DNA of 64,000 bases, from contig OZ242005.1 of NCBI GenBank assembly GCA_965204725.1, positions 4,800,001 through 4,864,000 of the forward strand. The letters run 5' to 3'. Position numbers and translations under genes: made by a program. Position 1 is the stretch's first letter. Every line of letters starts with the position of its first letter. This document shows positions 5,814-55,442 of this stretch, in pieces. A model generated the notes under the pieces. That model saw only the letters and a program-made list of their open reading frames with translations. It made no database searches and had not been told where the DNA came from. This DNA comes from Candidatus Latescibacterota bacterium (GTDB lineage: Bacteria > Latescibacterota > UBA2968 > UBA8231).

Positions 5814-5889
5814 TGGTAGCCCGTACGGGATTCGAACCCGTGTTACCGGCGTGAGAGGCCGGCGTCCTAGGCCTCTAGACGAACGGGCC
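5814..5889 (-). tRNA. tRNA-Glu (anticodon CTC)
   Basis: 76 nt, GGCCCGT...ACGGGCT acceptor stem, anticodon loop CTCTCAC, T-loop GGTTCGAATCC, encoded CCA end. Confidence 0.97.
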
Positions 5890-42129: not shown

Positions 42130-42200
42130 GGTCTCCTCCAGCGCGTTACGTTGATCCGCCAAGCTACCGGAAACCTAACAAAGAGCGGGCTATCACACTA

Positions 42201-43044
42201 GAAGCTATCTCATAAATAGTCTGGCTGTGCTACGTTAGTGGTATTCCCTTTCGGAGGTATCTCTTATGGATCTTACAGACGAACAGTGGTCGATAGTGTC
42301 CCCACTGCTGCCGGCGTGTCCCAAACGCCGCGATGGCCGGGGTCGTCCGTGGCGTTGTAACCGAGCGGTGCTCAATGGTATTCTGTGGATTCTCCGCACC
42401 GGGGCGCCTGGGCATGACCTGCCTGCTCGCTATCCGTCCTACCAGACCTGCCATCGTCGATTCCAACAGTGGTCGTCTGATGGCACCTTTGAACATATTC
42501 TGCGCACCCTCGCGCACGACTTGCATGAGCGCGGGGGCCTTGATGTGAGCGAATGCTTCATCGATGGCCTGTTTGTCGCGGCGAAAAAAGGGGGGACCAA
42601 GTGGGTCCGACCAAGCGGGGCAAAGGTACGAAGCTCATGGCAGTGGCAGACCGCGCTGGTCTTCCTATCGCCGTACTCATCCAAAGTGCTTCGCCGCACG
42701 AAGTCACCCTCGTAGAAGCCACCCTGGAAAACCGATGGGTCCAGCCCCGACCGCAACGACTCATCGGGGACCGAGCCTACGACTCGGATCGATTGGATGC
42801 GAGCCTGGCCGACCAAGGCATTGAGATGATCGCGCCGCATCGCCGCAATCGTACGCAGGCCAAAACCCAGGACGGGCGGCGGTTGCGGGGCTACAAAAGA
42901 CGCTGGAAAATAGAAAGACTGTTTGCTTGGTTGCATAACTTCCGCCGCATCGTGGTTCGATACGAATACTATGCTGAAAACTACCTCGGCTTTGTACAAC
43001 TCGGATGCATCCTCATACTGCTACGGTATTTATGAGATAGCTTC
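42201..43044 (+). mobile_element. IS5-family insertion sequence, copy 1 (844 bp)
   Basis: Perfect 18-bp terminal IRs GAAGCTATCTCATAAATA with TA on both flanks; split transposase inside. Confidence 0.95.
42266..43035 (+). CDS. IS5 transposase, orfA/orfB joined by -1 programmed frameshift
   Basis: MDLTDEQW...[13 protein letters not shown] (orfA), GDRAYDS and [14 protein letters not shown] (orfB). Slippery AAAAAAGGGGGG at 42584-42595. Confidence 0.9.
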
Positions 43045-44281
43045 TAATACCAAACACGCCGAGCACCGGCACATCGACCGGACTGTACGCCGGCTCGGCT
43101 TGGAGGAGTTGCTGTACGTCGTCGGACGAGACCGAGGGATACGTCAGGTGCAGTCCCTTCTTGTTGGCGCACTCGTACAAATCGCCATACTCGGCTCGGG
43201 GCACGGCGAGGAAACTGAAGACGTGACAGTCGTGTTCCAGTGCGGTCTCAATGGCCGTGCGCAGCACATCTTGCTTGCCGATTCGCCCTAATTGATCGAC
43301 ATAGCCGAGGATGAGCGTATCCGCTTCTGCAAGGACCGAAGCGAGCCGGGGCCGAATGCGTACCCCTATGTCGGACAAGCCCAACACGTGGCCCGCATCC
43401 TTACCAACCAGCCCCTTGCCCACTGGGTCGGCGATGCCCGTAATCTCAAACGCGAGTAGATCGTGCGCCCGGACCAAGGCGTGCATCTCCTTGTTGAACG
43501 GGTAGAGAGCCGCCTTCTGAATCCAAGAAAAACTTGAAGGATTGGCAGGAGGCTCCGGCGCGGCCACTGGGCGCGAGCGCATATTTGGGAGTAGCTCCGG
43601 CGTCCCCTGCAGCGCATTGGCCTGCAACTGCTCGCGCACCTGTTCCAACGATGCCCCCGGATGCGCTTGGCGAATCAAGGCAACCATGCCGGTAACGTGC
43701 GGCGCGGCAAAGCTGGTGCCCGACACCATCACATACCGAGGGTCGGTCCAGCAGACCCGCTGGGCATCGCCGCGGGCGACGCACTCGATCTCGTCCCCCG
43801 GACGATAGTAGTACCCATAGCGTCCGCGGACCTTACCTCCCGCAACGCCAATAACATCTGACAACACGGCTGGGTAGCTTTCGCGCCCGTCATTGTGCTC
43901 GGCAGCGACGAGAATAACCTTGGCTTCACGGGCTTGGCGACAGACCTCGGCGAGTGCGTCCCGGAAGGTAACGTCCGTCGTGCCTAAGCTGAGGTTGACC
44001 ACATCCATCCTCTGCTCAACCGCCCAGCGGATCGCCGCCAGCAGAGCCGGACCATCGGCGGTTAGGGACTCGTCAAAGAGGCGGACATCGTACAGGGTCG
44101 CTGTCGGCGCGATTTGGCGGATAATACCCGCGCAAGCCGTGCCGTGCCCCGCACTAGCAGCCGTTGGCGGAGACACCGAGTCCAAGAGTACCTCGTGAAC
44201 CGCGCCGATCTTTTCGTGCGTCGGGTCAATACCCGAGTCGATGACGGCGACATGGACGGGATGATCGGGTTGATTCGTCAA
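43045..44281 (-). pseudogene. Cytoplasmic S8 peptidase fused to TIGR04066/DUF1611-like domain, truncated by IS5
   Basis: Triad VIDSG / GHGTACAG / SGTSFAAP, no signal peptide. Then ALYPFNKE...GKGLVGKDAG...VDVPVLGVFG, after which the frame runs into the IS end. Confidence 0.8.
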
Positions 44282-44334
44282 GAGCTTCCTTTTGTTATAC
44301 CTGATACGGCAGGTCCTATTCGGGTTTACGGGTG

Positions 44335-45018
44335 CTACTCTCGGTTAAAGTAGAAGGCGAGTTCTGGTTTTTGGCGGGCGCGTATGGCAATCGTCGAATC
44401 CATGCGGATCGCCGTTGCTAAGTCCGCGCTGGCCAACGCCGTTTCGCCGCGCCAAGCGCGGATGCGGGCTCGGTAATACCACGCGACTCCTGTTTCGTGG
44501 TCGAGTAACACCGCCCGATTAAGCGCGTTTAACCCTTCGTCTAGTCTGTCTGTTCCTATAAAAAGAAGGCTTCGCTTGATCCACGACTCAAGGTGGTCCG
44601 GGTCGTGCTGCAACGCGGTCTCAAGTGCTGCTTCTGCGGCCGCATAGTCCTTTTCTTGGAGGTGAAGCGAACCAATAAGTCCCCAGAAATGCGCGAAATG
44701 GGCGTCCGTGGAATCGGCGGCCAAGCAGGTTTTGTAAACATGTACGGCTTTCTCTACTTGTCGTAGGTCGCGCAGAAGATCGCCCGTTTTCTGGCATAAT
44801 CCCACGTTTTTGGGATCTAAGCGAAACGCAGCCGAATAAGACTCAAGTGCTTGCTCATAAGCGCGCCGAGCCATCCGGCGTTCATTGTTCGCCATGAGTC
44901 GATCTCCATGCCGTAAGTAAGTATCCCCATCCGATAGATCATATCTCACCATGAGATATAACAGTGAAAGTATCGTCATGGAATTGATTACAACAGTAGA
45001 GACGACCCATTTTCTCAC
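44335..45018 (-). CDS. Membrane-anchored TPR protein
   Basis: N-terminal TM, repeats such as ALESYSAAFRLDPKN, ALQHDPDH, AWYYRARI. Confidence 0.85.
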   Translation of the reverse strand: MRKWVVSTVVINSMTILSLLYLMVRYDLSDGDTYLRHGDRLMANNERRMARRAYEQALESYSAAFRLDPKNVGLCQKTGDLLRDLRQVEKAVHVYKTCLAADSTDAHFAHFWGLIGSLHLQEKDYAAAEAALETALQHDPDHLESWIKRSLLFIGTDRLDEGLNALNRAVLLDHETGVAWYYRARIRAWRGETALASADLATAIRMDSTIAIRARQKPELAFYFNRE

Positions 45019-45764
45019 GGTACAGAATCCAACCTATAAACTCTAGAGGAGAAAACTAATTCTGCTACTATATTGGCAACGCCGTGTAGCACAATACAGG
45101 CTCCAATTGAACGAGATCGTTCATAGTAAAGAACAAGCACGAGACCTAAACCCAAATGAGGTAAAAGTGCCAAAAACGTTCCTTCCGTATTGTAGTGACA
45201 TAAAGCAAACAGTATTACATTGGTTATAACAGCCCATACAAAAGATAAATGCCTTTTGAGGTAGGGATACAGAATACCTCTAAATAGCCACTCCTCCACT
45301 AGAGGAATGACAATGACACCCTGTAATAATCTTATAATTGATAAATCGGGTAGGTGCATTACGGGGGGGACATAACCGGCTGATCGAGATAGATTCGCTG
45401 GAACCGTAATCAACAAGACTAAGAAAACAGCCAGCCAGACTTCTCTACCCATACCATATAGAGACAGTTCTATCTGCTTGGGCACAGTTCCTACAATGAG
45501 ATGAAAACAGGCAAGCATCAAAATCATCGCGGCAGCATGGGATCCAAAGAGGTAAATCGTGACGATTTTCATATCCCGCAACAGCAAAGACTCCTCTACC
45601 CAGTTATCGACACAAGCGTTTCTGAGTGCAATAAAAAAGAATAAAATGGCGAACTGTAGGATGACCAAGATAAGGTTCCATGGACACTCCCATTCTTGCC
45701 CTCGCATGGTATCCCAAGTGTTGATCACGATCCTATATCCCGTCTTAATGTACACACGATGCAC
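45015..45764 (-). CDS. CPBP/Abi (CAAX-like) intramembrane metalloprotease
   Basis: PLVEEWLFRG, FALCH, HGVAN motifs. Start uncertain. Confidence 0.9.
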   Translation of the reverse strand: MHRVYIKTGYRIVINTWDTMRGQEWECPWNLILVILQFAILFFFIALRNACVDNWVEESLLLRDMKIVTIYLFGSHAAAMILMLACFHLIVGTVPKQIELSLYGMGREVWLAVFLVLLITVPANLSRSAGYVPPVMHLPDLSIIRLLQGVIVIPLVEEWLFRGILYPYLKRHLSFVWAVITNVILFALCHYNTEGTFLALLPHLGLGLVLVLYYERSRSIGACIVLHGVANIVAELVFSSRVYRLDSVP

Positions 45765-45886
45765 TCTGAGTGCTGGCTGTGCGGATGTATCTGCATCCTG
45801 CTCAGGTAGTTATAAGACGATGACAGCCTATGGGCATCCGCTTTGGCTGCAATGGATACCGTGATGGCTGTTCCAAATAACCTAGT

Positions 45887-46588
45887 TTACCCTGCGCTGA
45901 TCGAGTATTTTACCCAAGTGGCCCCCGCTGCAAAGAGTGTCTGTAGAGACCAGAAGATTGCAACGGCGAAGGCCGCTTGGAGGCGTTTGAGTGCGCATAT
46001 GCGACTCAAGCCCAAGACGAGAAGCCCATAGTACCAGAAGCTGAAGGGGTTGATATTCATAAGTACAGTTTTGGTTATCGGATGCAGTTCCCCATGCCAG
46101 AGGAGGTCTAAGCCAATAGAAATAGCTAGCTCATCTACCGTTGCTTGGCCTGTCTGAACTTTCATTATGCTTATACCCGCCATCAGCACCCCAGCAATGA
46201 AAGTCGTCATGTTGGAATAGGCGACTAGAGAGAAGATCATCTTGAATTCCGCCAAGCCCTCTAAGACTTGGACGATGAGCCATATCGCGAACGAGGAAAA
46301 GAACCATAGAAGCAGTATGCTGGGAAGGGTGGCGATGGTCGCCACGTAGTGGACAGTACGATTGACCTCCCTGACCTGTTTCAAGTCCGCCGATGGTATG
46401 GAGACTGACATCTGTTCTATAACAGCCTCTTGCAGCAGGGGGAAGGTGAGCCAAGTTATCAGAGTGGATCCCATACCGATAGCGAGGAAGGGGGCTAACC
46501 AGTTAGGGTGCTCGAGGATCTGCCGAAAAGCATGTGAAGGCGACCAAATTATCCAGTATAAATTGCGAAAGGTAAGTGCGGTATCCAT
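45887..46588 (-). CDS. Yip1-domain membrane protein
   Basis: IIWSPSHAFRQILEHPNW, INPFSFW; 5 TM segments. Confidence 0.8.
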   Translation of the reverse strand: MDTALTFRNLYWIIWSPSHAFRQILEHPNWLAPFLAIGMGSTLITWLTFPLLQEAVIEQMSVSIPSADLKQVREVNRTVHYVATIATLPSILLLWFFSSFAIWLIVQVLEGLAEFKMIFSLVAYSNMTTFIAGVLMAGISIMKVQTGQATVDELAISIGLDLLWHGELHPITKTVLMNINPFSFWYYGLLVLGLSRICALKRLQAAFAVAIFWSLQTLFAAGATWVKYSISAG

Positions 46589-46607
46589 GGCGGTCGTATT
46601 CTTGGTT

Positions 46608-47129
46608 TTAGAGCAGGTGGCTACTTGGGTTTAGGGACCTATAACCCACTTCCCGACGTTGCAGTATGCCCTGTTCATTTAAAAAAAGCAGCGTCGGGAC
46701 GCGAACTATCCCTAGACGTTCGCGCAACTGAGTTTGGCAACCGAATAATACCAGAAATGAGCCGGTGATGTGCTGCCCGGCACCGCTAGGCAGTAAGGGG
46801 TGTTCTCTGATTACAGCAACGATCTCGACATTCATGATCGACCTGCGGCTTTGCCACTGTTTCAACTCGTCTAATTTAGTATGGCAAAAGCTGCATTCGA
46901 GATCGAGAACGGCGACAATCAGTTTTTTTTCTCGAAAGTCTTCGAGGTGGACGGCATTGCCTTGTCCGTCTTTGAGATCAATTGAGGGCAAAGGTTGACC
47001 GATGCGGGCACTGTGTTTCGTTTTGCTGGTCGTTCCCATCCATAGGAACCCGACGGTTGTCGCTAAGGCGAGTGAAGATAGTACCACGAGTGCCCGTATT
47101 CGGCGATTTACGCGCCTTCCACTAGCCAT
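46608..47129 (-). CDS. TlpA/redoxin-family thiol-disulfide oxidoreductase, membrane-anchored
   Basis: TM anchor, IGQPLPSIDLKD, CSFC (CxxC), VPTLLFLNEQG. Confidence 0.85.
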   Translation of the reverse strand: MASGRRVNRRIRALVVLSSLALATTVGFLWMGTTSKTKHSARIGQPLPSIDLKDGQGNAVHLEDFREKKLIVAVLDLECSFCHTKLDELKQWQSRRSIMNVEIVAVIREHPLLPSGAGQHITGSFLVLFGCQTQLRERLGIVRVPTLLFLNEQGILQRREVGYRSLNPSSHLL

Positions 47130-47580
47130 TGTCCTGCCGCTTCTGTAGGATCGAATCAAAGAGGATTTTGGCCAGAGCTACTCGTTCCCTCTCTACGAGC
47201 TTTGCCTGCACCACAGTACCTTCCAAGTTGTACGCGAGGCGGTCGAAATCGACTTCCCCTTTGAGGGTGATCCAGACCCGGGTCGCGTCAGGTTCGTAGT
47301 CGATACGCCCGTTGATCTGTGCTATAATGGCACGGAGAACCTCTTGTTCGTCATAAGTAATATCAGCATAGTGGCATTCGCGTAGCAGACTCAGGCGCAT
47401 ATCTGGGATGTCCGCCTCCAATATCCAATCTGGTCCTCTGCGGTGGAGCAAACCCTCCAATTCTAGACCGACGTTCACACGTATAGTAGCTAGCCCGATC
47501 ACCATAAACATCAGGATAAGCGTCGTGCCGAATAACAGGACGCCAACTTTCCATTCCAGCTTACGGGGGATTTTCATCAC
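47122..47580 (-). CDS. Single-TM accessory protein, minimal HlyD-like
   Basis: TM followed by ILEADIPD...LRAIIAQI...GTVVQAKLV...LAKILF, the pattern of an HlyD beta-barrel without the coiled coil. Lies directly after the exporter gene. Confidence 0.5.
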   Translation of the reverse strand: MMKIPRKLEWKVGVLLFGTTLILMFMVIGLATIRVNVGLELEGLLHRRGPDWILEADIPDMRLSLLRECHYADITYDEQEVLRAIIAQINGRIDYEPDATRVWITLKGEVDFDRLAYNLEGTVVQAKLVERERVALAKILFDSILQKRQDNG

Positions 47581-47588
47581 GAGTTTAC

Positions 47589-49349
47589 CTAGATATAAGG
47601 CTGATGAAAATTTGCAAAAGGGCCATTTTGATTGATAAGCTCGTTATAGGTACCTGCTTCGACAATTTTCCCTCCAGAGAGGACGTGGATGATGTCGGCA
47701 AGAACCAAGGACGTAGATTGATGAGCTATCAAGAGCGTTGTCCGGTCCCTAGTTGCCCTTTTGAGTATGCGAAGGACTGTCTGTTCCGTGTTGCTGTCGA
47801 GCGAGGACGTTGCTTCATCGAGAATGAGAATCTGCGGATTGCGTATAATTGCCCTAGCCAAAGCTAGGCACTGCTTTTGACCGCCCGAAAGCTGGACTCC
47901 CCCAGATCCGATGCGTGTATCGATACCTGCGGGAAAGTGCTGTATGAACTCCATACAATCCATCTCTTCTAGGGTCTGTTCTATCGCATGGTAAGTAGCA
48001 TTAGAAGTCCCGTAAGCAACATTCTCTCGAATGCTGCCTGTAAAGAAAGACGCATCTTGTCCTACCCATCCGACAACACCACGCAGATGATCCAGATTGT
48101 AGGAGTTTGCGTTGACTCCGTCTATGCGAAGCTCACCGGAGGTTGGCTCGTAGAACCGGACCAACAGGTGAGCCAAGGTGGTCTTCCCCGATCCTATCTT
48201 CCCGACCACGGCAGTGACTTGGCTGGGCTCCAACGTCAAGTCGATTCCGTTTAGCACCGGTAGCCCCTTGTCATAGGAAAAGTAGATGTTTTCGTACACC
48301 ACTTTGCCTTTTCTAATCCGGTATTTGTTCTGAGGAACCTTTTTTTCGAGAGGCGTTTCCATCATTTCGACGACTCGCTTCAAAATACCTATGCCTTGGC
48401 GAAAACTGACGTATAGTACCGACAACTGGTTGACGGGACCGTAAACGTACGCCACCAAAGTGTGGAAGGCCATAAACTGCCCGAGGGTAAGCAGACCTTC
48501 CATGATCGAGTACGCGCCGTACCAGAGGACAGCCAGTCCACTTATGCTGTAGAGAAATATCTGCAGCAATTGAGCACTGACCATTGTCGCGTCACGTTGT
48601 AGGCGGCTCTCGGCTTCTCGACGCAAATAACCCGAAAGCCTCAGAACCTCCTTCCTCGTTCCGCCAAAGACCTTGGCTGCCAAGGCCGAATCCAAAGACT
48701 CTATGCGCATAGAGTTGGTCTGACTCTTCCTCTCCTGTGTCGCGGCACTGTATTTTTGGATGCGTCGCCCGAAGCGGATATTCGTCCAGACAAAGGCTGG
48801 CAGAACTAGGAGAACGACTGAGGTCAGTGTTGAATTGAGGGAGAACATGATCACCAAGGCAATGGCGATGAGCGACAAACTGCTCAAACCCTCAATGTAC
48901 GTTCCTGCCATCAGCGTGTTTAACTGACGTACATCGTCACTGATGCGGGTGGAAAAGTAGCCAGGGCCGCGATTGAGGAGAAAGGAAACAGGAGCCTCAA
49001 GTACGGAGCGAAACAGTTTCAATTCCATATTGAAAAAAACGCGCCGCGAAAACACCAGTAGAAGGTAGCGATGTAGAAAACCTAGACCCAATCCCAGCAA
49101 GGTGGTAAGGATCAGGGTCGCGCATATGACGTTCAGTGCATGGATTTGGCCATTGGCTATAACCCGATCAATGATATAGATGGTCAATACTGGCATCGGT
49201 GACGCGAGGATGGTAGTGAACAGCATGCATACACCCGCTTCCACAGCACGCAGCCAGTAAGGAGAGAAGAAAGGGAGCAACCGTTGAAGTGATGCTAGCA
49301 TCTCCAGCGATCTTTCCATTCTATTTCGTATATCTTCTTTTATAGTCAT
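47589..49349 (-). CDS. Peptide/protein ABC exporter (permease+ATPase) without C39 peptidase domain
   Basis: IIDRVI, LTLGQFMAF, GKIGSGKTT, LSGGQKQ, LDEATS. 586 aa, with TM region starting at the N-terminus. Confidence 0.9.
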   Translation of the reverse strand: MTIKEDIRNRMERSLEMLASLQRLLPFFSPYWLRAVEAGVCMLFTTILASPMPVLTIYIIDRVIANGQIHALNVICATLILTTLLGLGLGFLHRYLLLVFSRRVFFNMELKLFRSVLEAPVSFLLNRGPGYFSTRISDDVRQLNTLMAGTYIEGLSSLSLIAIALVIMFSLNSTLTSVVLLVLPAFVWTNIRFGRRIQKYSAATQERKSQTNSMRIESLDSALAAKVFGGTRKEVLRLSGYLRREAESRLQRDATMVSAQLLQIFLYSISGLAVLWYGAYSIMEGLLTLGQFMAFHTLVAYVYGPVNQLSVLYVSFRQGIGILKRVVEMMETPLEKKVPQNKYRIRKGKVVYENIYFSYDKGLPVLNGIDLTLEPSQVTAVVGKIGSGKTTLAHLLVRFYEPTSGELRIDGVNANSYNLDHLRGVVGWVGQDASFFTGSIRENVAYGTSNATYHAIEQTLEEMDCMEFIQHFPAGIDTRIGSGGVQLSGGQKQCLALARAIIRNPQILILDEATSSLDSNTEQTVLRILKRATRDRTTLLIAHQSTSLVLADIIHVLSGGKIVEAGTYNELINQNGPFANFHQPYI

Positions 49350-49409
49350 TAAGAAGCGTTCTTAAAACTAGGGTTTCGTACTCTCACTCGGCTCAAAGTA
49401 TCTTAGGAT

Positions 49410-49441
49410 TAGCACGGCGCGACTATTTATGAGATAACTTC
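49410..49441 (-). mobile_element. Relic of the IS5 left end
   Basis: TAGCACGGCGCGACTATTTATGAGATAACTTC versus IS TAGCACAGCCAGACTATTTATGAGATAGCTTC; IR matches 17/18. Confidence 0.75.
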
Positions 49442-50205
49442 TAGCAATCGCCGGTCGCCTTCGTTAAACGTAGGAACAGGTCTTCCAATGTAGAGTCATT
49501 GGCTTTCTGTTGCAGTTCCCTCACCTTCACCTTGTCGTTCAATGATTCGGTTGAGGCGGAGAAGACTATCTTGCCTTTATGACAGATCGCTACCTTTTCA
49601 CACAATTCTTCCACTATGGGTAGAATATGGGACGTCAAGAAGACCGTCTTGCCTTTTCCAGCGGCATCCTTGAGGAGGTCCTTTATCATCTTGACCGACC
49701 GGGGATCGATTCCGGTAAAGGGTTCGTCGAGGAAGAGAAGTTCTGGGTCGTGCAGCAAAACCGCCGCCAGTGCCAGTTTCTTCTTCATCCCCGCGGAGTA
49801 GGTGCTGATCTGCGCGTCGCTAGCACTGCCTAGATCGAAAAGCTCTAGGAGATCGGCGGTACGTTGACGCAGTGTCGGCTTGTCGAGGCCGAACATCGCT
49901 CCGGAGAAATACAGATGTTCCTGGCCTGTGAGCGATTCGTAAAGGGCAAGGTCCTCGGCCATGATACCGATGCGCTTCTTGATCTCTGTCGCGTTGACCG
50001 TCATCTCTTCCCCCAGAATGTGAACCGTCCCCGCGCTAGGTGCCAAGAGCCCCGACAGCAAGTTGGTCAGCGTGGACTTTCCTGCCCCGTTTGGTCCGAT
50101 GAGTCCGAGTATCACCCCTGGAATAACGTCGATGTCGACATTGTCTATCGCCAAGAGTCTTCCGTATTTCTTTGTTAGTCCGACCGCACGAATTGCGTAT
50201 TCCAT
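49441..50205 (-). CDS. ABC-2 type ATP-binding protein
   Basis: GPNGAGKST, YSAGMKKKL, LDEPFTGID, TLEDLFLRLT. Confidence 0.93.
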   Translation of the reverse strand: MEYAIRAVGLTKKYGRLLAIDNVDIDVIPGVILGLIGPNGAGKSTLTNLLSGLLAPSAGTVHILGEEMTVNATEIKKRIGIMAEDLALYESLTGQEHLYFSGAMFGLDKPTLRQRTADLLELFDLGSASDAQISTYSAGMKKKLALAAVLLHDPELLFLDEPFTGIDPRSVKMIKDLLKDAAGKGKTVFLTSHILPIVEELCEKVAICHKGKIVFSASTESLNDKVKVRELQQKANDSTLEDLFLRLTKATGDC

Positions 50206-50248
50206 GAGACGACCTTCGTTTGCTTTATATTCTTCCAAAGCCCATTCT

Positions 50249-51853
50249 TTATGAGCAGAAACGGATGAGAAACAAGTCCCTTTTATCCAGCCACACCTCG
50301 GCTGCCTTCTGCAAAGTGAGAGTATAGAAAATCGCTGTGGTAATACACATAGCTGCTAGCAGCGACAGTAGGATTATCGGCTGCCTGACGACCTCGTGAA
50401 AGTAATACAGGCCCGCGCCAATTATTATAGCGGAAAGGCTCAGGCCTACTATGGCTAGAAAATCGGCCTGTAGAGAAAGGTAACGCCCGACGATGTTACC
50501 CGGTGAGAGCTTGAGCGGATAGAGTACAGAGGCTATGTTACCAATTAAGGTATGCAGCAGAGACAGGTACAGCATGATCAAGATGATCGCCAGCCTTTCG
50601 GACCAGTCGGTATGTCCCCAACTAAGGTAGAAGGTCCACGCCATACTCGGCCCTGCAATCGCCCCTTGGACAAGCAGATATGCTAGATTTTTACCGACTA
50701 GGATGGTTTTTGGCTGGATTGGAGCTAAAAAATTAAAGACGACTCCCGTAGATTCGAGACCGAAAATATTGTAGAAAATCGCATAGGGTATTACACATAT
50801 TGGCAATAACAACAGCAGTGAATAGGGGCCGACGACGACCCCTTTTGCGACGTGTATCAGAGGGATGGCAATGCCCCAAAGCAGGGTGGATAACAGAATG
50901 AGACGCAGCCGATTTTCGCGTAAGATATAAATCAATTCTTTGGCCGCGACGTTGGCCACTTGGCAGTTGAACAGCCCCTCGAACGCGCTGGTCAGTTTCT
51001 CGAACGTGTTGACATTGTATAAAATCGCCTCTCCCCCTTGAAGAGGCCGCTCGTACAATCTCTTCTTGAGCAGAAAATAGGCAATTATTCCACAGCTAAC
51101 GGCATAGACGATAAGGCCAACCGCTGGCCAGCCTGCGAGCCTGCCAGCGTGAAAACCAAGTAGCAGTTCGCTGACTAGGCCGGGAGGGGTCAAAACCCAA
51201 TACGCGGCAGAGTGGTTGATCGGGGCGATGAGAGTATCGATATCGACATAGTGTCCAAGCATCGAATAGACGGAACCGAGCAGGATAGCAGAGAAGAAGA
51301 TCAGCTTCCCACGATGCCTACTAAGCGACCGGATCAAGTCAGCCAGCAGCAGGCTAAGCATGTATACTAGCATGTGGTTGGCTAGCACGAATAGGGCGAT
51401 AATGAAAAGTAAACCGACTGCAGGAACGAGACCTTGCTTCATTCCATAGAGCGTACCTAGCCACACAGCAAGAAGATAAAAGATCAAAAGCCAAGGGTTG
51501 AAGAGCCCCAACGTTACATCGGCTGCGTAGAGTCTCCATAGCCTGTAAGGGAACCGGACTAGTCGGAACAGTCGAGACATATCGGGCGTGGATATACCTC
51601 GGAACAAGCCCAGCAGTACCCATGCTATGGACAGATAGGCAAAGGTGGCTAGTACCAAACGGGGCAGAATATATGCACCCTGGGTAGTTAGAAGTAGCTG
51701 AGTCGAATAGTAGAACTGAGTTATAAAAAAAATACCCCAGCTAATACCTAAAACGAGTACGGTGCCCATTAATAAACACCATGTCCTCTCCCTCTTTGCC
51801 CAGTTGAGCGAAGCGTGGTATTTCAACCAGAGTATATAGACGACCATCATCAT
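50249..51853 (-). CDS. Multi-pass ABC-2-type permease
   Basis: About 12 TM segments, LTPPG, KELIYILRE, NIFGLE, ILVGKN. Adjacent to the ATPase. Confidence 0.75.
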   Translation of the reverse strand: MMMVVYILWLKYHASLNWAKRERTWCLLMGTVLVLGISWGIFFITQFYYSTQLLLTTQGAYILPRLVLATFAYLSIAWVLLGLFRGISTPDMSRLFRLVRFPYRLWRLYAADVTLGLFNPWLLIFYLLAVWLGTLYGMKQGLVPAVGLLFIIALFVLANHMLVYMLSLLLADLIRSLSRHRGKLIFFSAILLGSVYSMLGHYVDIDTLIAPINHSAAYWVLTPPGLVSELLLGFHAGRLAGWPAVGLIVYAVSCGIIAYFLLKKRLYERPLQGGEAILYNVNTFEKLTSAFEGLFNCQVANVAAKELIYILRENRLRLILLSTLLWGIAIPLIHVAKGVVVGPYSLLLLLPICVIPYAIFYNIFGLESTGVVFNFLAPIQPKTILVGKNLAYLLVQGAIAGPSMAWTFYLSWGHTDWSERLAIILIMLYLSLLHTLIGNIASVLYPLKLSPGNIVGRYLSLQADFLAIVGLSLSAIIIGAGLYYFHEVVRQPIILLSLLAAMCITTAIFYTLTLQKAAEVWLDKRDLFLIRFCS

Positions 51854-51936
51854 ATTGGCGCAAATTCCTAAGTTGTGGCAGAAATCCCATTGCAGCCGTT
51901 CACTACGACGGTACGATATACCTAATAGCTGCACCG

Positions 51937-52002
51937 TCAGCAGCGAAGCTACCCCAGAGTCCTGACCCTAGGGTAGCTTCTAAGTTGCTGCGTCGCTGCT
52001 GA
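51937..52002 (-). terminator. Stem-loop downstream of the precursor gene
   Basis: Inner GAAGCTACCC/GGGTAGCTTC and outer TCAGCAGCGA/TCGCTGCTGA arms. No clear U-tract. Confidence 0.6.
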
Positions 52003-52065
52003 TACTGCTATAGTTATGATTCTGCGAGTAAGCCTAATTCGCAAAATCAAAACACCACGGTATTA

Positions 52066-52909
52066 GAAGCTATCTCATAAATACCGTAGCAGTATGAGGA
52101 TGCATCCGAGTTGTACAAAGCCGAGGTAGTTTTCAGCATAGTATTCGTATCGAACCACGATGCGGCGGAAGTTATGCAACCAAGCAAACAGTCTTTCTAT
52201 TTTCCAGCGTCTTTTGTAGCCCCGCAACCGCCGCCCGTCCTGGGTTTTGGCCTGCGTACGATTGCGGCGATGCGGCGCGATCATCTCAATGCCTTGGTCG
52301 GCCAGGCTCGCATCCAATCGATCCGAGTCGTAGGCTCGGTCCCCGATGAGTCGTTGCGGTCGGGGCTGGACCCATCGGTTTTCCAGGGTGGCTTCTACGA
52401 GGGTGACTTCGTGCGGCGAAGCACTTTGGATGAGTACGGCGATAGGAAGACCAGCGCGGTCTGCCACTGCCATGAGCTTCGTACCTTTGCCCCGCTTGGT
52501 CGGACCCACTTGGTCCCCCCTTTTTTCGCCGCGACAAACAGGCCATCGATGAAGCATTCGCTCACATCAAGGCCCCCGCGCTCATGCAAGTCGTGCGCGA
52601 GGGTGCGCAGAATATGTTCAAAGGTGCCATCAGACGACCACTGTTGGAATCGACGATGGCAGGTCTGGTAGGACGGATAGCGAGCAGGCAGGTCATGCCC
52701 AGGCGCCCCGGTGCGGAGAATCCACAGAATACCATTGAGCACCGCTCGGTTACAACGCCACGGACGACCCCGGCCATCGCGGCGTTTGGGACACGCCGGC
52801 AGCAGTGGGGACACTATCGACCACTGTTCGTCTGTAAGATCCATAAGAGATACCTCCGAAAGGGAATACCACTAACGTAGCACAGCCAGACTATTTATGA
52901 GATAGCTTC
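52066..52909 (-). mobile_element. IS5-family insertion sequence, copy 2 (844 bp, inverted relative to copy 1)
   Basis: Same IRs, TA flanks and length as copy 1; all ORF translations identical. Confidence 0.95.
52075..52844 (-). CDS. IS5 transposase, orfA/orfB (-1 frameshift)
   Basis: Translations identical to 42266-43035. Confidence 0.9.
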
Positions 52910-52921
52910 TAGCAAGACTGG

Positions 52922-53116
52922 CTAGAAGCAAGAAAAAGCGACGCTATGGACTGCTACGGAAACAGCGAAAGCACCGACTATGCCGCCCGTGGGGACGAAC
53001 GTGGCTACGCTAAGGCCGAGACCTAGAACGGACAATCCGCATTCGACCCCGTATCCGCACACAGACGCGTTTCCGCCATACGGACGCAACGTGCGTTTCC
53101 TCAAAGTACGGGTCAT
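52922..53116 (-). CDS. Putative bacteriocin/RiPP precursor peptide (64 aa)
   Basis: Strong AAGGAGGTG RBS. MTRTLRKRTLRPYGG-NASVCGYGVECGLSVLGLGLSVATFVPTGGIVGAFAVSVAVHSVAFSCF. Heads an export/processing gene run. Confidence 0.8.
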   Translation of the reverse strand: MTRTLRKRTLRPYGGNASVCGYGVECGLSVLGLGLSVATFVPTGGIVGAFAVSVAVHSVAFSCF

Positions 53117-53218
53117 ATCTATCACCTCCTTTCTATATTGGATTTGTGAATCCGTTCGGCGACCCGCGGGTCTGCAACTATGTAACTAGTATTAGACACG
53201 CGTCTACTGAACGGTTCA

Positions 53219-54673
53219 TTAAGTCAACCTGTGGGAGATGCCCATGCTTTGAAAAATAGCCTGGGCCGTAGCCTTGTATTCCGCAGCTGCATTAGTCCTC
53301 CCTTCTTGAGTGGCGATCTGAGACAAAGCTTCTAGTGCCTTGCCTTGGTCAATTCGACTGCCAACTTGCTCGCTCTTATGCAACACCTCTTGGCAACATG
53401 AAGCAGCCTTCTCGAAATGTCCCTGACTAGTATATACTGAGCTTAAGTAATGGCCTATCTGCATTTCTAAGGTAGGTAGGCCCATCTTATAGCATTGGTC
53501 TACGAACCGTCGGAGAGAGAGAATTGTCGCCTCCACATCACTTCCGCCGGACAGCATTGAGAGCAGGATTTCGCACTCTAGAGCCAAGGGACGCAACCCT
53601 GATTGCTGAGCTAGAGTCAGAGCCTTGGCCAAGAGCTCCTGAGCTTGGGCGGTAATTCCCAACCGCAACAGGCACCTGCCCCATGTCAAACGGCTTCTGA
53701 CTTGACCGCGCCTGTAGCGGAGGTGTTCCTCTAAGTCAATCGCCTCTGCGAAATAGCGGCCGCCGTTTTTCATGTCACCGCTGCTTAGATGCATTAGTCC
53801 GCGTAAGCCCAACACTCTCCCTTTGGCGTGAGCGTCGTCCAAGCTCTCGTATAGCTCTTGCGCTGCGTCAATGTGGTGGCTAGCGTCATTCCTCCCTTGC
53901 AAAAGCCATAGGTAGGCCAATTGCAGGTGCAGCCGGCCTACGACATTAATTCTCCGCCTGCTTATTTGGACCAGTGCTTCACGGAGCACCGTTTCGCCAT
54001 CGTGGAACTTGCCCATGGCCGTGAGCAATCCGCCTTTGACCAACGCTCTCGACGCGGCTGCCTCCACTGTATCCTGTCGTTTCGTGATGCTGTAAATTCC
54101 TTCGTCGCAAAGCTGGAGGCCTTGGTAGTATTGTCCGCGGTGCATGCAGAGAAGAGCTAATCGAGTCTTGACGAAATTCACGTGGTGGCCCTCGTCTTCC
54201 GTTTTCAATACGCCGGTCGCCTCTTCGAGACACCTGTTAGCCCCGGTCCAATCCCCCATATCTTGCAGGACTTGGGCGCGATTGATTTGTATCAGTCCTT
54301 GGAACTGCTCCCATCCGCGCTCTGCGGCGAGGTTTGCGGAACGAGAGAAGACAGCTTCGGCACTGTATAGATCGGATGTGAGGACACAGGCTACTCCTTG
54401 TGCCGCTTGGGCTATCAGGCTTGCGGTGGCCGTGTCGGAAGAAGCGTACAATTCCGCCGCTTCCTCGTATTTCTTAGCTGCGAAAGCCTCTTCGCCCCGC
54501 CGAAAACGATCGATTGCTAGTTCGTGCTTTGGCTCGGGTAGGGACTGTAATTCTTCCTGTAAGTCTTTTTCATTTGGCTTGAAAAACTGCTGACTATCGT
54601 CGGGTAGTTGAACTTCTGCGAAACCCTCTACCTCTTTCGCTTTCAGCTTGCGTATCCAGTGGTTCCTGATCAT
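53219..54673 (-). CDS. Soluble TPR-repeat protein (MalT/Rap-like helical repeats)
   Basis: Repeats such as NRAQVLQDMGDWTGANRCLEEA, LSSVYTSQGHFEKA, ALEALSQIATQEG. No signal peptide and no evident HTH. Confidence 0.8.
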   Translation of the reverse strand: MIRNHWIRKLKAKEVEGFAEVQLPDDSQQFFKPNEKDLQEELQSLPEPKHELAIDRFRRGEEAFAAKKYEEAAELYASSDTATASLIAQAAQGVACVLTSDLYSAEAVFSRSANLAAERGWEQFQGLIQINRAQVLQDMGDWTGANRCLEEATGVLKTEDEGHHVNFVKTRLALLCMHRGQYYQGLQLCDEGIYSITKRQDTVEAAASRALVKGGLLTAMGKFHDGETVLREALVQISRRRINVVGRLHLQLAYLWLLQGRNDASHHIDAAQELYESLDDAHAKGRVLGLRGLMHLSSGDMKNGGRYFAEAIDLEEHLRYRRGQVRSRLTWGRCLLRLGITAQAQELLAKALTLAQQSGLRPLALECEILLSMLSGGSDVEATILSLRRFVDQCYKMGLPTLEMQIGHYLSSVYTSQGHFEKAASCCQEVLHKSEQVGSRIDQGKALEALSQIATQEGRTNAAAEYKATAQAIFQSMGISHRLT

Positions 54674-55115
54674 ATGGTGCGTCCCTCAGTTTTAGCAGCC
54701 TTTCGCTTCTATGGTTGAAATCACTAAGAGAAACGAGCGCACGAAACAGAAGCCCGGCCCATGGAATTCCCCCACGCTTAGGACATTACTTCGGCTATCC
54801 GGTCCCGAGGGACGGTCGTTTTGCCCAAGCACTTGGGATTCAGCGGTTAGAGCCGGCATCTTCTAACTCCATGCGCTGAAAGGGAAGGCCCCGAGCACAA
54901 GTGGCTCAAGGTTGACTTTATCTGGGGAAGGTCCGCACCGCGCAACCGCGCATACCGGCGCACCCATAGCGGCTCCCAAGGCATACTCCGCTGTGGTAAT
55001 AGAGCCGTACAGACCGCTACCCACTCGGCACCGAATGGCTCGCCAAGGGTGAGCAAGGCGATCCTCCGGCCCTTGATGGGGCTTAAAAACTCGTAGCCTA
55101 GAGGTCGAAAATTGA

Positions 55116-55153
55116 GGGGGGGGGGGGGTAAGTCCTTGTCTTACAACGACTTA
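55116..55153 (-). repeat. 10-5-10 palindrome followed by C13 tract
   Basis: Minus strand TAAGTCGTTG-TAAGA-CAAGGACTTA, then 13 C. Confidence 0.75.
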
Positions 55154-55310
55154 CGACGATTTTCTTAGGTAAAATTTTAGGACTGGAAGCAGATGTAAAT
55201 ATCGCGGCGGGCTTTGCCGGCGGCAACGTCGTCGCAAATGTGGGGTGATTTCTCATCTTCCAGTTCGTCCGTACGATGGGCGGAACAGCAGGCTCCGCGT
55301 TAGGGCTATA

Positions 55311-55340
55311 AGCATAAGGAAACGCCAAAAGGCTTGTCAA
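55311..55340 (-). promoter_or_regulatory. Sigma70-like promoter pointing into the peptide cluster
   Basis: TTGACA-18 nt-TATGCT on the minus strand. Confidence 0.5.
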
Positions 55341-55442
55341 GAGAAAATTTAGCACATCCTGCCGCAAGCCGCGTCCCTTCCACGGCGATTGCGGCCGGCG
55401 GCCCATTTGCCTAATCTGAGTATTCTTCCCAAAGGAACGGCC

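Follow-up and report, generated by a model that had tools for sequence, protein, structure and literature searches.

The 64,000-nucleotide (nt) stretch analysed here, called the window throughout, comes from the chromosome of a Candidatus Latescibacterota bacterium (assembly GCA_965204725.1, contig OZ242005.1, positions 4,800,001 to 4,864,000), and between its positions 43,045 and 54,673 lies a gene cluster built around a small open reading frame (ORF) for a peptide of 64 amino acids (aa). A first-pass annotation had read eleven co-oriented genes at this place as a candidate system for a peptide that is ribosomally synthesised and then modified post-translationally (RiPP) or a bacteriocin. All eleven ORFs are present where they had been placed, on the minus strand, and their GC content is visibly lower, as had been remarked (the 5.38-Mb chromosome has 60.4%, and the part from 45 to 52 kb has 45-52%). 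The host is also uncultured as supposed, since Candidatus Latescibacterota is an uncultured phylum. The gene set is real, conserved and uncharacterised, and is probably a variant of the RiPP-like or bacteriocin-like systems; an insertion sequence (IS) has broken the copy described here. Its features, in the direction of transcription, are the following.

54692..54859, minus: remnant of a HlyD-family gene, 5' end, 55 codons (BLAST clustering with the HlyD family)
53219..54673, minus: tetratricopeptide repeat (TPR) protein, 484 aa, family f32 (Pfam TPR_2, TPR_12, TPR_MalT)
52922..53116, minus: candidate precursor peptide, 64 aa (AGGAGG at 53130-53125; no family match)
52059..52912, minus: IS5-family copy 2, two overlapping ORFs with DUF4096 and DDE_Tnp_1, between the small ORF and the permease gene
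50249..51934, minus: polytopic membrane protein, 561 aa, about 10-11 hydrophobic segments (hydropathy scan)
49441..50238, minus: ATP-binding cassette (ABC) ATPase, DrrA-like, 265 aa (ABC_tran 104 bits; TIGR01188 238 bits, below its cut-off of 312)
49410..49444, no strand: solo IS end (terminal inverted repeat, 35 nt, matching at 89%), between the ABC-2 ATPase and exporter genes
47589..49349, minus: ABC exporter, 586 aa, transmembrane plus nucleotide-binding domain (ABC_membrane 123 bits, ABC_tran 106 bits)
47122..47580, minus: single-pass membrane protein, 152 aa, unnamed family f29 (one hydrophobic segment; no family match)
46608..47159, minus: membrane-anchored thioredoxin-fold protein with a CSFC motif, TlpA/ResA-like (AhpC-TSA and Redoxin above cut-offs; N-terminal hydrophobic segment)
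45887..46588, minus: Yip1-domain membrane protein, YknW-like (PF04893 49.4 bits; NF052650 YknW 63 bits, below its cut-off of 110)
45015..45764, minus: CPBP/Rce1-like intramembrane protease, Abi type (PF02517 70 bits)
44335..45018, minus: membrane-anchored TPR protein, 227 aa (several TPR models; one N-terminal hydrophobic segment)
43052..44281, minus: S8-DUF1611/TIGR04066-like fusion gene, 5' part, 410 codons (Peptidase_S8, DUF1611_N; the ORF runs 43013-44281 with its IS codons)
42198..43051, plus: IS5-family copy 1, one breakpoint of a 1.09-Mb inversion (inverted repeat, DUF4096 and DDE_Tnp_1)

Most of the labels of the first-pass annotation agreed with the family scans, namely those of the TPR protein, ATPase, exporter, redoxin, Yip1 protein, CPBP protease, membrane-anchored TPR protein and S8 protein. 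The 152-aa protein had been called mini-HlyD-like, a label that we rejected: profile comparison (hhalign) with the HlyD proteins of relatives gave a probability of 0.3%. This protein always comes after this exporter type. The 561-aa membrane protein had no match in Pfam or NCBIfam and is 23% identical to its counterpart in the related locus L031; its sole placement came from protein-language-model (Atlas) features, at 0.96-0.97 to 12TM_1/ABC_tran_2 clusters. It is likely the permease partner of the next ATPase, and the pair is a candidate immunity pump. The exporter, 52% identical to those of loci L030 and L031, begins with its membrane domain and has no C39 peptidase domain, as had been claimed, because C39-bearing models align to it only from profile position ~137-180. 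For the redoxin, the ResA and TlpA models score below cut-off.

Among the Pfam and NCBIfam matches of the cluster proteins, displaced part (see below) included, no lanthipeptide, YcaO or radical S-adenosylmethionine (SAM) maturase family was found. The reported absence of LanB/C/M and YcaO held in these scans; DUF95, which had been listed with them, had no separate search. Rfam and tRNA scans of the window gave one tRNA-Glu (5814-5889) only, with none in or beside the cluster.

Insertion elements and the displaced part of the cluster

The two IS copies form an 854-nt inverted repeat, 100% identical (42198-43051 and 52059-52912). Assignment to the IS5 family follows from DUF4096 and DDE_Tnp_1 in two frames, terminal inverted repeats, multiple copies and the 3 nt shared at an empty-site joint; the sub-group is presumably IS427-like. 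Genome-wide there are 12 full copies of the 845-nt element, 8 of them identical, and one 278-nt fragment. The solo terminal repeat at 49410-49444 is the scar of an older insertion, and it is also covered by a contig from another sample (X3, below) in which the two full copies are missing.

Copy 1 interrupts the fusion gene. The last 13 codons of the S8 fusion ORF are IS sequence, positions 2-156 of the 361 of the TIGR04066 model are present, and the break falls in a conserved Walker-A-like loop, GTSxQQGKF. The 3' part of the gene was found 1.09 Mb away on the opposite strand (G000:C1:3754283-3754929), directly abutting another IS copy, with TIGR04066 positions 159-360 at G000:C1:3754291-3754899 on that same opposite strand. 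Aligned to an intact 654-aa paralogue, the two halves cover its residues 24-434 and 441-646. Each half adjoins an IS copy, with the orientation that a single recombination between inverted copies would produce. Recombination with the distant copy appears to have inverted the 1.09 Mb, taking along the 3' half and the genes for an acyl carrier protein (ACP), an AziU2-like and a BtrH-like protein. Insertion at TA would agree with both junctions of the S8 break and with the sequence that runs through in the intact form; where TA is expected, the displaced junction has AA. The element is evidently active and already the source of at least one megabase inversion.

The S8-DUF1611-like maturase of the first-pass annotation was correctly recognised in its Peptidase_S8 and DUF1611_N domains, but the gene is truncated here, split by the IS and the inversion. 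Likewise the eleven genes stand, but the cluster is larger, IS-interrupted, and continues at the displaced 3' half. Downstream of that half are four further genes, which belong to the cluster: those for the ACP (PP-binding match, with the Ser of the attachment motif present), for a 201-aa protein (u201), for a 332-aa BtrH-like protein, and a CPBP fragment. This fragment, at L004 6786-7257 (G000:C1:3756786-3757257), is the C-terminal part only (a 95-aa ORF, Rce1-like at 44 bits; a 136-aa ORF of another frame overlaps it), and is probably a decayed gene ending the displaced part. We also observed, on the minus strand between the insertion site of copy 2 and the permease start, a palindrome with a 10-bp stem (window 51955-52000; GAAGCTACCC ... 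GGGTAGCTTC), with arms similar to the terminal repeat of the IS. A miniature element derived from the IS is one possibility for it, and an RNA hairpin following the peptide gene is another.

Contigs that Logan gives for four public runs (X3, X6, X7 and X10) were compared with window positions 42900-54900. An X3 contig of 14,069 nt (~99.8% identity) and an X6 contig of 2,616 nt both join 52063 to 52910, skipping 846 nt, that is IS copy 2, with 3 nt shared. The X3 contig continues left past 43044, and the 30 letters read there match, once reverse-complemented, the beginning of the displaced 3' half; therefore, in that sample, the fusion gene is uninterrupted and the cluster contiguous. For X7 and X10 the contigs begin within the IS end, at 43017, which is the arrangement of this genome. 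Taken against the X3 and X6 forms, this means that the IS insertions and the inversion are recent, strain-level events.

Turning to the enzymes, the S8 domain of the fusion protein (PF00082, 101 bits) has as its nearest model QhpE, at 144.8-146.8 bits and below the cut-off of 165, and it would be QhpE-like and not a QhpE member. The triad columns D26, H57 and S201 (Asp/His/Ser) are invariant in 15 fusion proteins, and GTSxQQGKF is conserved. With TIGR04066 (cut-off 200 bits) the window half scored 45.8, the displaced half 50.4 and the intact paralogue 118. DUF1611 (PF17396 plus PF07755) was recognised in the displaced half by PF07755 (39.3 bits, cut-off 25) and in the paralogue by both domains above cut-off; the window half alone reached 19.2 bits with the N domain, below the cut-off of 22.6. 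A structural model of the DUF domain of an orthologue (16 sequences, pLDDT 83.7) matches 2g0t and 2obn, which are DUF1611 structures, and 7xrj, which is DgcN, an N-acetyltransferase by its PDB title, with TM scores of 0.56-0.72. The S8-DUF1611 fusion has no described function: our literature search, which did not extend to supplementary files, found neither such fusions nor a connection between DUF1611 and peptide maturation.

The ACPs match generic PP-binding models only. For u201, comparison with AziU2 of azinomycin biosynthesis gave a profile E of 4.2e-14, and all four fold-search matches below E 1e-3 were chains of the AziU2/AziU3 complex (TM 0.66-0.69; model pLDDT 65), which suggests that u201 is an AziU2 homologue. 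The BtrH-like protein of the paralogous cluster scored 46.6 bits with an additional DUF4872 match, and a Cys near the N-terminus, Cys19, is invariant in an alignment of 8 sequences of this family. No ATP-grasp, sulfotransferase or amino-group carrier protein was seen in the cluster. BtrH, CtaG and AsbE are carrier-protein-dependent papain-like ligases with AziU2/U3 as a structural neighbour (PMC7183216, PMC12865890), and AziU3/U2 is described as an aziridine synthase (PMC12559475).

The small peptide, its relatives and the variable cassette

The 64-aa peptide has a basic hydrophilic N-terminus, Cys20 and Cys26, a hydrophobic core rich in Gly, Val and Ala, and a penultimate Cys63. The strong ribosome-binding site reported for its ORF was confirmed, AGGAGG standing 8 nt ahead of the ATG. 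The proposal of the first-pass annotation would have fallen had homologous clusters carried no conserved small ORF at this position, and such an ORF, with an upstream Shine-Dalgarno-like purine run, was found just before the permease gene in all eight homologous cassettes with a readable junction. These eight positional homologues, of 74-89 aa and from at least five other Latescibacterota genera, share a hydrophilic N-terminus of the form (L/V)-x-K-P-x-R ... A-Y-H/S-x-E, then a Cys about 30-35 residues in, followed by 40-50 Gly/Ala-rich hydrophobic residues. Six of them end in a Cys or have one close to the C-terminus, and the remaining two have their last Cys 14 residues from the end. The window peptide is built in the same way. 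The Gly-Gly pair of the window peptide is found in that peptide only and is not conserved in the homologues. In Atlas features the peptide lies nearest to Bacteriocin_IIc clusters, at 0.87, which is a lead only.

The same leader motif precedes very different cores in sister clusters, some short, others acidic and Cys-rich. A profile was built from 17 leaders, with the window leader deliberately excluded and one redundant seed dropped. Searched against five closed genomes (27.9 Mb), it gave nine matches at E <= 1e-5, the next standing at E >= 0.3, and all nine lie 1.6-10.3 kb from an S8-DUF1611 gene; six are seeds and three are new. When the window peptide was scored directly against the profile of the eight positional homologues it reached 10.0 bits, with the core aligned from Cys20 to Cys63. 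Complex prediction for the S8-DUF1611 protein of locus L019 with the window peptide scored 0.04 against a mark of 0.32, and counts neither way.

The order of TPR gene, small ORF, permease, ATPase, exporter, f29, redoxin and Yip1 genes recurs in seven of the eight cassettes (L030, L031, L125, L126, L127, L129 and L130), and L124 has the same gene set with the TPR gene moved. This count leaves out L131, a 2-kb contig, and five weak, partial f29 matches in genus g22. The TPR protein (53219..54673), the first gene product of the variable cassette, is encoded directly upstream of the small ORF, and its homologues adjoin the small ORF in relatives too (29% identity to those of L030 and L031; tblastn matches in L124-L127, L129 and L130). 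An S8-DUF1611 gene is adjacent in five of the eight (L030, L031, L124, L125 and L127). Locus L128 has the exporter-to-ACP part and no TPR/ABC-2 cassette, and within 7.4 kb upstream we found no convincing small ORF there. Partners of the HlyD, MacB and ATPase kinds stand in L030, L031, L124 and L125 only, and not in the window.

Divergence of the cassette was measured between L030 and L031, which are of the same genus. The exporter, f29 protein, redoxin, Yip1 protein, fusion protein, ACP, glycosyltransferase, F5, HlyD protein and MacB-type permease are 82-96% identical between the two, whereas identity falls to 48% for the TPR protein, 37% for the ABC-2 ATPase and ~30% for the peptide, and the ABC-2 permeases give no match. 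This would be the pattern expected of a toxin with its cognate protection, and we infer from these comparisons the strongest argument for a bacteriocin-like role.

Of 41 related genomes, 30 have S8-DUF1611 fusion genes (E <= 1e-20), often in several copies, and one genome can give up to five matches. Full-length matches from beyond the phylum are weak (29-33%) and belong to metagenome-assembled genomes of Clostridia and Bacteroidetes; in Anaerocolumna the TIGR04066-like and QhpE-like genes are separate and stand among radical SAM/SPASM maturases. ORF calling and clustering covered 28 sources, made up of 25 loci, the genome's own paralogue and the two window pieces. The S8-DUF1611 gene was found in all 28, the ABC exporter in 26, the ACP in 20, a HlyD-family protein in 18, F5 in 14, and u201 and the BtrH-like protein in 10 each. 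The ACP is followed either by the u201 and BtrH-like pair or by F5, a single protein of ~345 aa with a distant relation to the BtrH-like family (hhalign E 4e-5, probability 69%).

Within the window's own genus, orthologues of the fusion gene are intact, encode 630-639 aa and are 78-84% identical. In the same-genus loci L019 and L023 the CPBP, membrane-anchored TPR, fusion and ACP genes are together 61-89% identical to those of the window, the CPBP protease (45015..45764) at 83% and the membrane-anchored TPR protein (44335..45018) at 61%, but the upstream half differs and consists of HlyD, another exporter (31%), a small ORF of 136-176 aa and a second CPBP gene. The HlyD remnant of the window (54692-54859) adjoins the TPR gene on its upstream side, and its translation resembles the N-terminal end of the HlyD protein of L019. 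Because of this remnant and the different upstream half in the same genus, we conclude that an older upstream half was replaced by the low-GC part from the TPR to the Yip1 gene. This low-GC part has relatives in other places: of 168 Latescibacterota genomes, 16 (in 8 of 49 genera) have the f29 family, and the 30 other genomes from the window's genus all lack it. Between the cluster and a NUDIX gene (window 54847-55406) lies a stretch that is also conserved in relatives of the same genus. It is visible as spurious ORFs common to them (family f19), had no Rfam family match, and may serve as a promoter or regulatory region or encode an undescribed RNA.

Other cluster types were seen alongside these. 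The same genome holds, outside the window, a second and intact S8-DUF1611 cluster (G000:C1:3966155-3985020, loci L005/L006), which begins with a histidine kinase and response regulator, a rhodanese, a beta-propeller protein and a small Cys-rich acidic precursor with the shared leader (C1:3980703-3980969), and goes on with an exporter, a rhodanese, the fusion gene, an ACP, AziU2-like and BtrH-like proteins, HlyD and two resistance-nodulation-division (RND) pumps. In loci L032 (G002:C1:1428501-1448500) and L033 (G007:C2:1261201-1281200), each locus has two to three copies of short precursors that combine the shared leader with ~20-residue cores holding 4-5 Cys. Repeated genes of 400 aa and 600 aa are interleaved with them beside an S8-DUF1611 gene; L032 has this gene without an ACP, and L033 has a decayed ACP-like ORF only. 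In other Latescibacterota, tandem arrays of membrane proteins that have ~100 aa and two pairs of CxxC (f20 and f37 families; L037 7442-8319 and L040 11961-12598) are placed between precursor-like ORFs and S8-DUF1611 genes, and these proteins are possible immunity proteins or further substrates.

Interpretation and rival explanations

We consider it probable, at roughly 0.6, that the locus is a RiPP-like or bacteriocin-like peptide system of an uncultured, sponge-associated Latescibacterota bacterium, inactivated by IS elements in this genome, and that it works along the following lines. The 64-aa product would be a precursor, with a hydrophilic leader and a Cys-flanked hydrophobic core rich in Gly, Ala and Val, and the QhpE-type subtilase domain would cut off the leader in the cytoplasm. 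The DUF1611 P-loop domain, the ACP and the AziU2/AziU3(BtrH)-like pair would probably add a carrier-bound group to the peptide or build it there. The processed peptide could then be taken out of the cytoplasm by the C39-less ABC exporter and its 152-aa membrane partner, and the membrane-anchored CxxC redoxin may act on its cysteines in the periplasm. Protection of the producer would come from the ABC-2-type pump, the Yip1/YknW-like protein and the CPBP proteins, with the peptide, the TPR protein and the ABC-2 pump forming a fast-diverging cassette on conserved machinery. In the state seen here, IS copy 2 separates the peptide gene from the rest and IS copy 1 sits in the P-loop of the fusion gene.

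Several results weigh against this interpretation. The window peptide is absent from the 154 matches of the leader profile (E < 200) among 118,640 six-frame ORFs of the genome, and the profile of its eight positional homologues did not find it with default filters. The direct score of 10.0 bits corresponds to E 5.3 at genome scale and to a conditional E of 6e-5 for a single pre-specified ORF. The peptide has no paralogue in the genome, where only chance-level matches were found, and a word search of 5.8 billion proteins returned the window peptide only. Because the leader profile misses it, the claim for the window peptide rests on its position, its build and the weak core match and not on leader homology. 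Three of the eight homologous cassettes are without an adjacent S8-DUF1611 gene, each of these genomes having one copy elsewhere. No modification enzyme of a known RiPP class is present, and the ACP, AziU2/U3-like and BtrH-like proteins, being hallmarks of small-molecule pathways, could be working independently of the peptide. The link to AziU3 is weak (top PDB match of the BtrH-like family, E 0.25), and the BtrH-like protein of the window cluster (L004 5815-6813) reached 19.5 bits, below the Pfam cut-off of 29.7. Finally, the system is broken here and should be inactive in this genome unless the intact paralogue (C1:3975778-3977742) substitutes.

A bolder reading goes further, and we put it forward tentatively. 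Perhaps the S8-DUF1611 protein, the ACP and the AziU2/AziU3(BtrH)-like proteins define a new RiPP class in which leader proteolysis is coupled to thiotemplated modification of Cys-containing peptides. It would have its own leader motif, L-x-K-P/K-x-R ... A-Y-H-x-E, and would have spread through Latescibacterota in many cassettes, including those with Gly/Ala-rich hydrophobic peptides with a terminal Cys like that of the window.

The three unlinked cassettes also bear on another explanation, that two unrelated modules lie side by side: an unmodified, membrane-active peptide of class II type with its export and immunity genes (small ORF, TPR, ABC-2, exporter, f29, redoxin and Yip1) beside genes for making a thiotemplated small molecule or for modifying some other substrate (S8-DUF1611, ACP, AziU2-like and BtrH-like). 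The same-genus block of CPBP, membrane-anchored TPR, S8-DUF1611 and ACP genes is conserved next to an upstream half of another cluster type, and therefore the two halves were joined by replacement. ACP and BtrH/CtaG-type enzymes are known from non-ribosomal pathways, and the Atlas lead to Bacteriocin_IIc points the same way. However, the S8 domain is nearest to a leader peptidase, QhpE, and one leader motif with varied cores tracks S8-DUF1611 genes in nine of nine strong matches, within ~10 kb. Even the peptides of the three unlinked cassettes keep the leader motif, in genomes that each have one S8-DUF1611 gene. These results make the explanation by two modules unlikely, although it fares better than the other rivals.

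A smaller chance is given to the small ORF encoding an integral membrane protein that is not exported, for instance an immunity factor or an accessory subunit of the ABC-2 pump. Some 40 of its 64 residues lie in hydrophobic stretches of membrane-spanning length after the basic N-terminus (net charge +5), it has no family match, and it always adjoins the permease gene. The leader motif of the homologues is nevertheless common to clearly non-membrane, acidic and Cys-rich peptides of sister clusters, and the first and last Cys are conserved with ~30% identity between them, on machinery that is 90% identical, which fits a toxin-immunity pair.

Somewhat less probable again is peptide signalling, in which an exported peptide would be sensed by the co-varying TPR protein in the manner of an RRNPP receptor. 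The TPR gene is indeed the immediate neighbour of the peptide gene and co-varies with it (48% against ~90% for the machinery), and in L030, L031 and L124 the TPR gene comes after a response-regulator/AraC gene. Against this, the TPR protein has no DNA-binding domain match, the pump, Yip1/YknW-like and CPBP genes fit self-protection better, and to our knowledge no known signalling peptide resembles a hydrophobic core of 40-50 residues. Maturation of a periplasmic redox enzyme's small, cross-linked subunit, as in the QhpC or MauA pathways, would account for the QhpE-like protease, efflux ABC transporter and thioredoxin-fold protein, and for MauE/DoxX genes in related clusters, but is very improbable with hypervariable, hydrophobic cores and no dehydrogenase subunits, radical SAM enzyme or QhpG-type gene in the cluster.

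If the locus is indeed a RiPP-like or bacteriocin-like system of the kind we favour, an uncultured, sponge-associated candidate phylum would hold a large and diversifying family of ribosomal peptides, and ribosomal peptide maturation would be linked to a carrier-protein chemistry so far known only from non-ribosomal pathways. The shared leader motif together with the fusion gene would provide a handle for genome mining in this phylum, and the hypervariable cassette of peptide, TPR and ABC-2 genes on 90%-identical machinery would be a clean example of toxin/immunity co-diversification. Since the copy of this genome is broken by IS elements, the intact allele of other samples is the better starting material for experiments.

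Comparison with known systems

The locus had been said to fit no class that could be named. A nearest named kind does exist, namely the Firmicutes set of TIGR04066, TIGR04069 and CcpM with CLI_3235 precursors, but the cluster is not a member of it. In that set, for example in the SacP23 cluster of Paenibacillus polymyxa (PMC10731318), TIGR04066, the ACP-related TIGR04069, CcpM (TIGR04068), a subtilase and a Cys-rich CLI_3235 precursor occur together; the roles of TIGR04066 and of the carrier proteins are unproven there too. Both sets bring together in one cluster a subtilase and a protein of TIGR04066/DUF1611 type with a carrier protein, an ABC transporter and a small precursor that contains Cys. 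Here, however, the subtilase and the DUF1611 domain are fused, the ACP is followed by the AziU2/AziU3(BtrH)-like pair or by a distant BtrH-like protein, and the host belongs to a diderm candidate phylum. No TIGR04068 radical SAM gene was found near the cluster, the best matches of the genome, at C1:3.904 and 3.953 Mb, reaching 82 and 20 bits (cut-off 500) and lying outside either cluster, and neither TIGR04069 (E <= 0.1) nor the TIGR04065 precursor (E <= 1) had a match in the genome.

A second comparison is with QhpE/QhpF. QhpE cuts a 28-residue leader from QhpC in the cytoplasm, after which an efflux ABC transporter exports the product (PMC7876137). The small cytoplasmic subtilisin-like protease, the N-terminal leader, the Cys-containing peptide and the peptidase-less efflux ABC transporter all have proposed counterparts here, and QhpE/QhpF is a direct precedent for C39-less export. 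The window cluster differs in having no QhpD, QhpG or dehydrogenase subunit, in its hypervariable and hydrophobic cores, and in its immunity-type genes.

Class II bacteriocins and class IIa microcins are Gly-rich hydrophobic peptides with double-glycine leaders and C39-ABC/HlyD export. The likeness lies in a hydrophobic, Gly/Ala-rich small peptide that contains Cys, in an ABC exporter of its own and in ABC-2, CPBP and Yip1 genes of the immunity type, and the difference in the missing C39 domain, the Gly-Gly pair that is not conserved, another leader motif and the presence of candidate modification genes. The cluster belongs neither to this class nor with QhpE/QhpF. Peptide-toxin protection of the YknWXYZ type does not describe the window either, its Yip1 protein scoring 63 bits against a cut-off of 110 and the membrane fusion protein, FtsX and ATPase partners not being in the window.

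The last comparison is with BtrH, CtaG and AsbE and with AziU2/AziU3 (PDB 7wuw, 8gs1), which the cluster resembles in having an ACP followed by an AziU2-like protein and a putative BtrH_N/DUF4872 protein. It differs from AziU2/AziU3 in that no sulfotransferase or amino-group carrier context was seen here. The known examples act in non-ribosomal small-molecule pathways, whereas here these genes adjoin a predicted leader protease and ribosomal precursors. In the literature on Latescibacter, RiPPs and sponges, one paper gives antiSMASH classes only.

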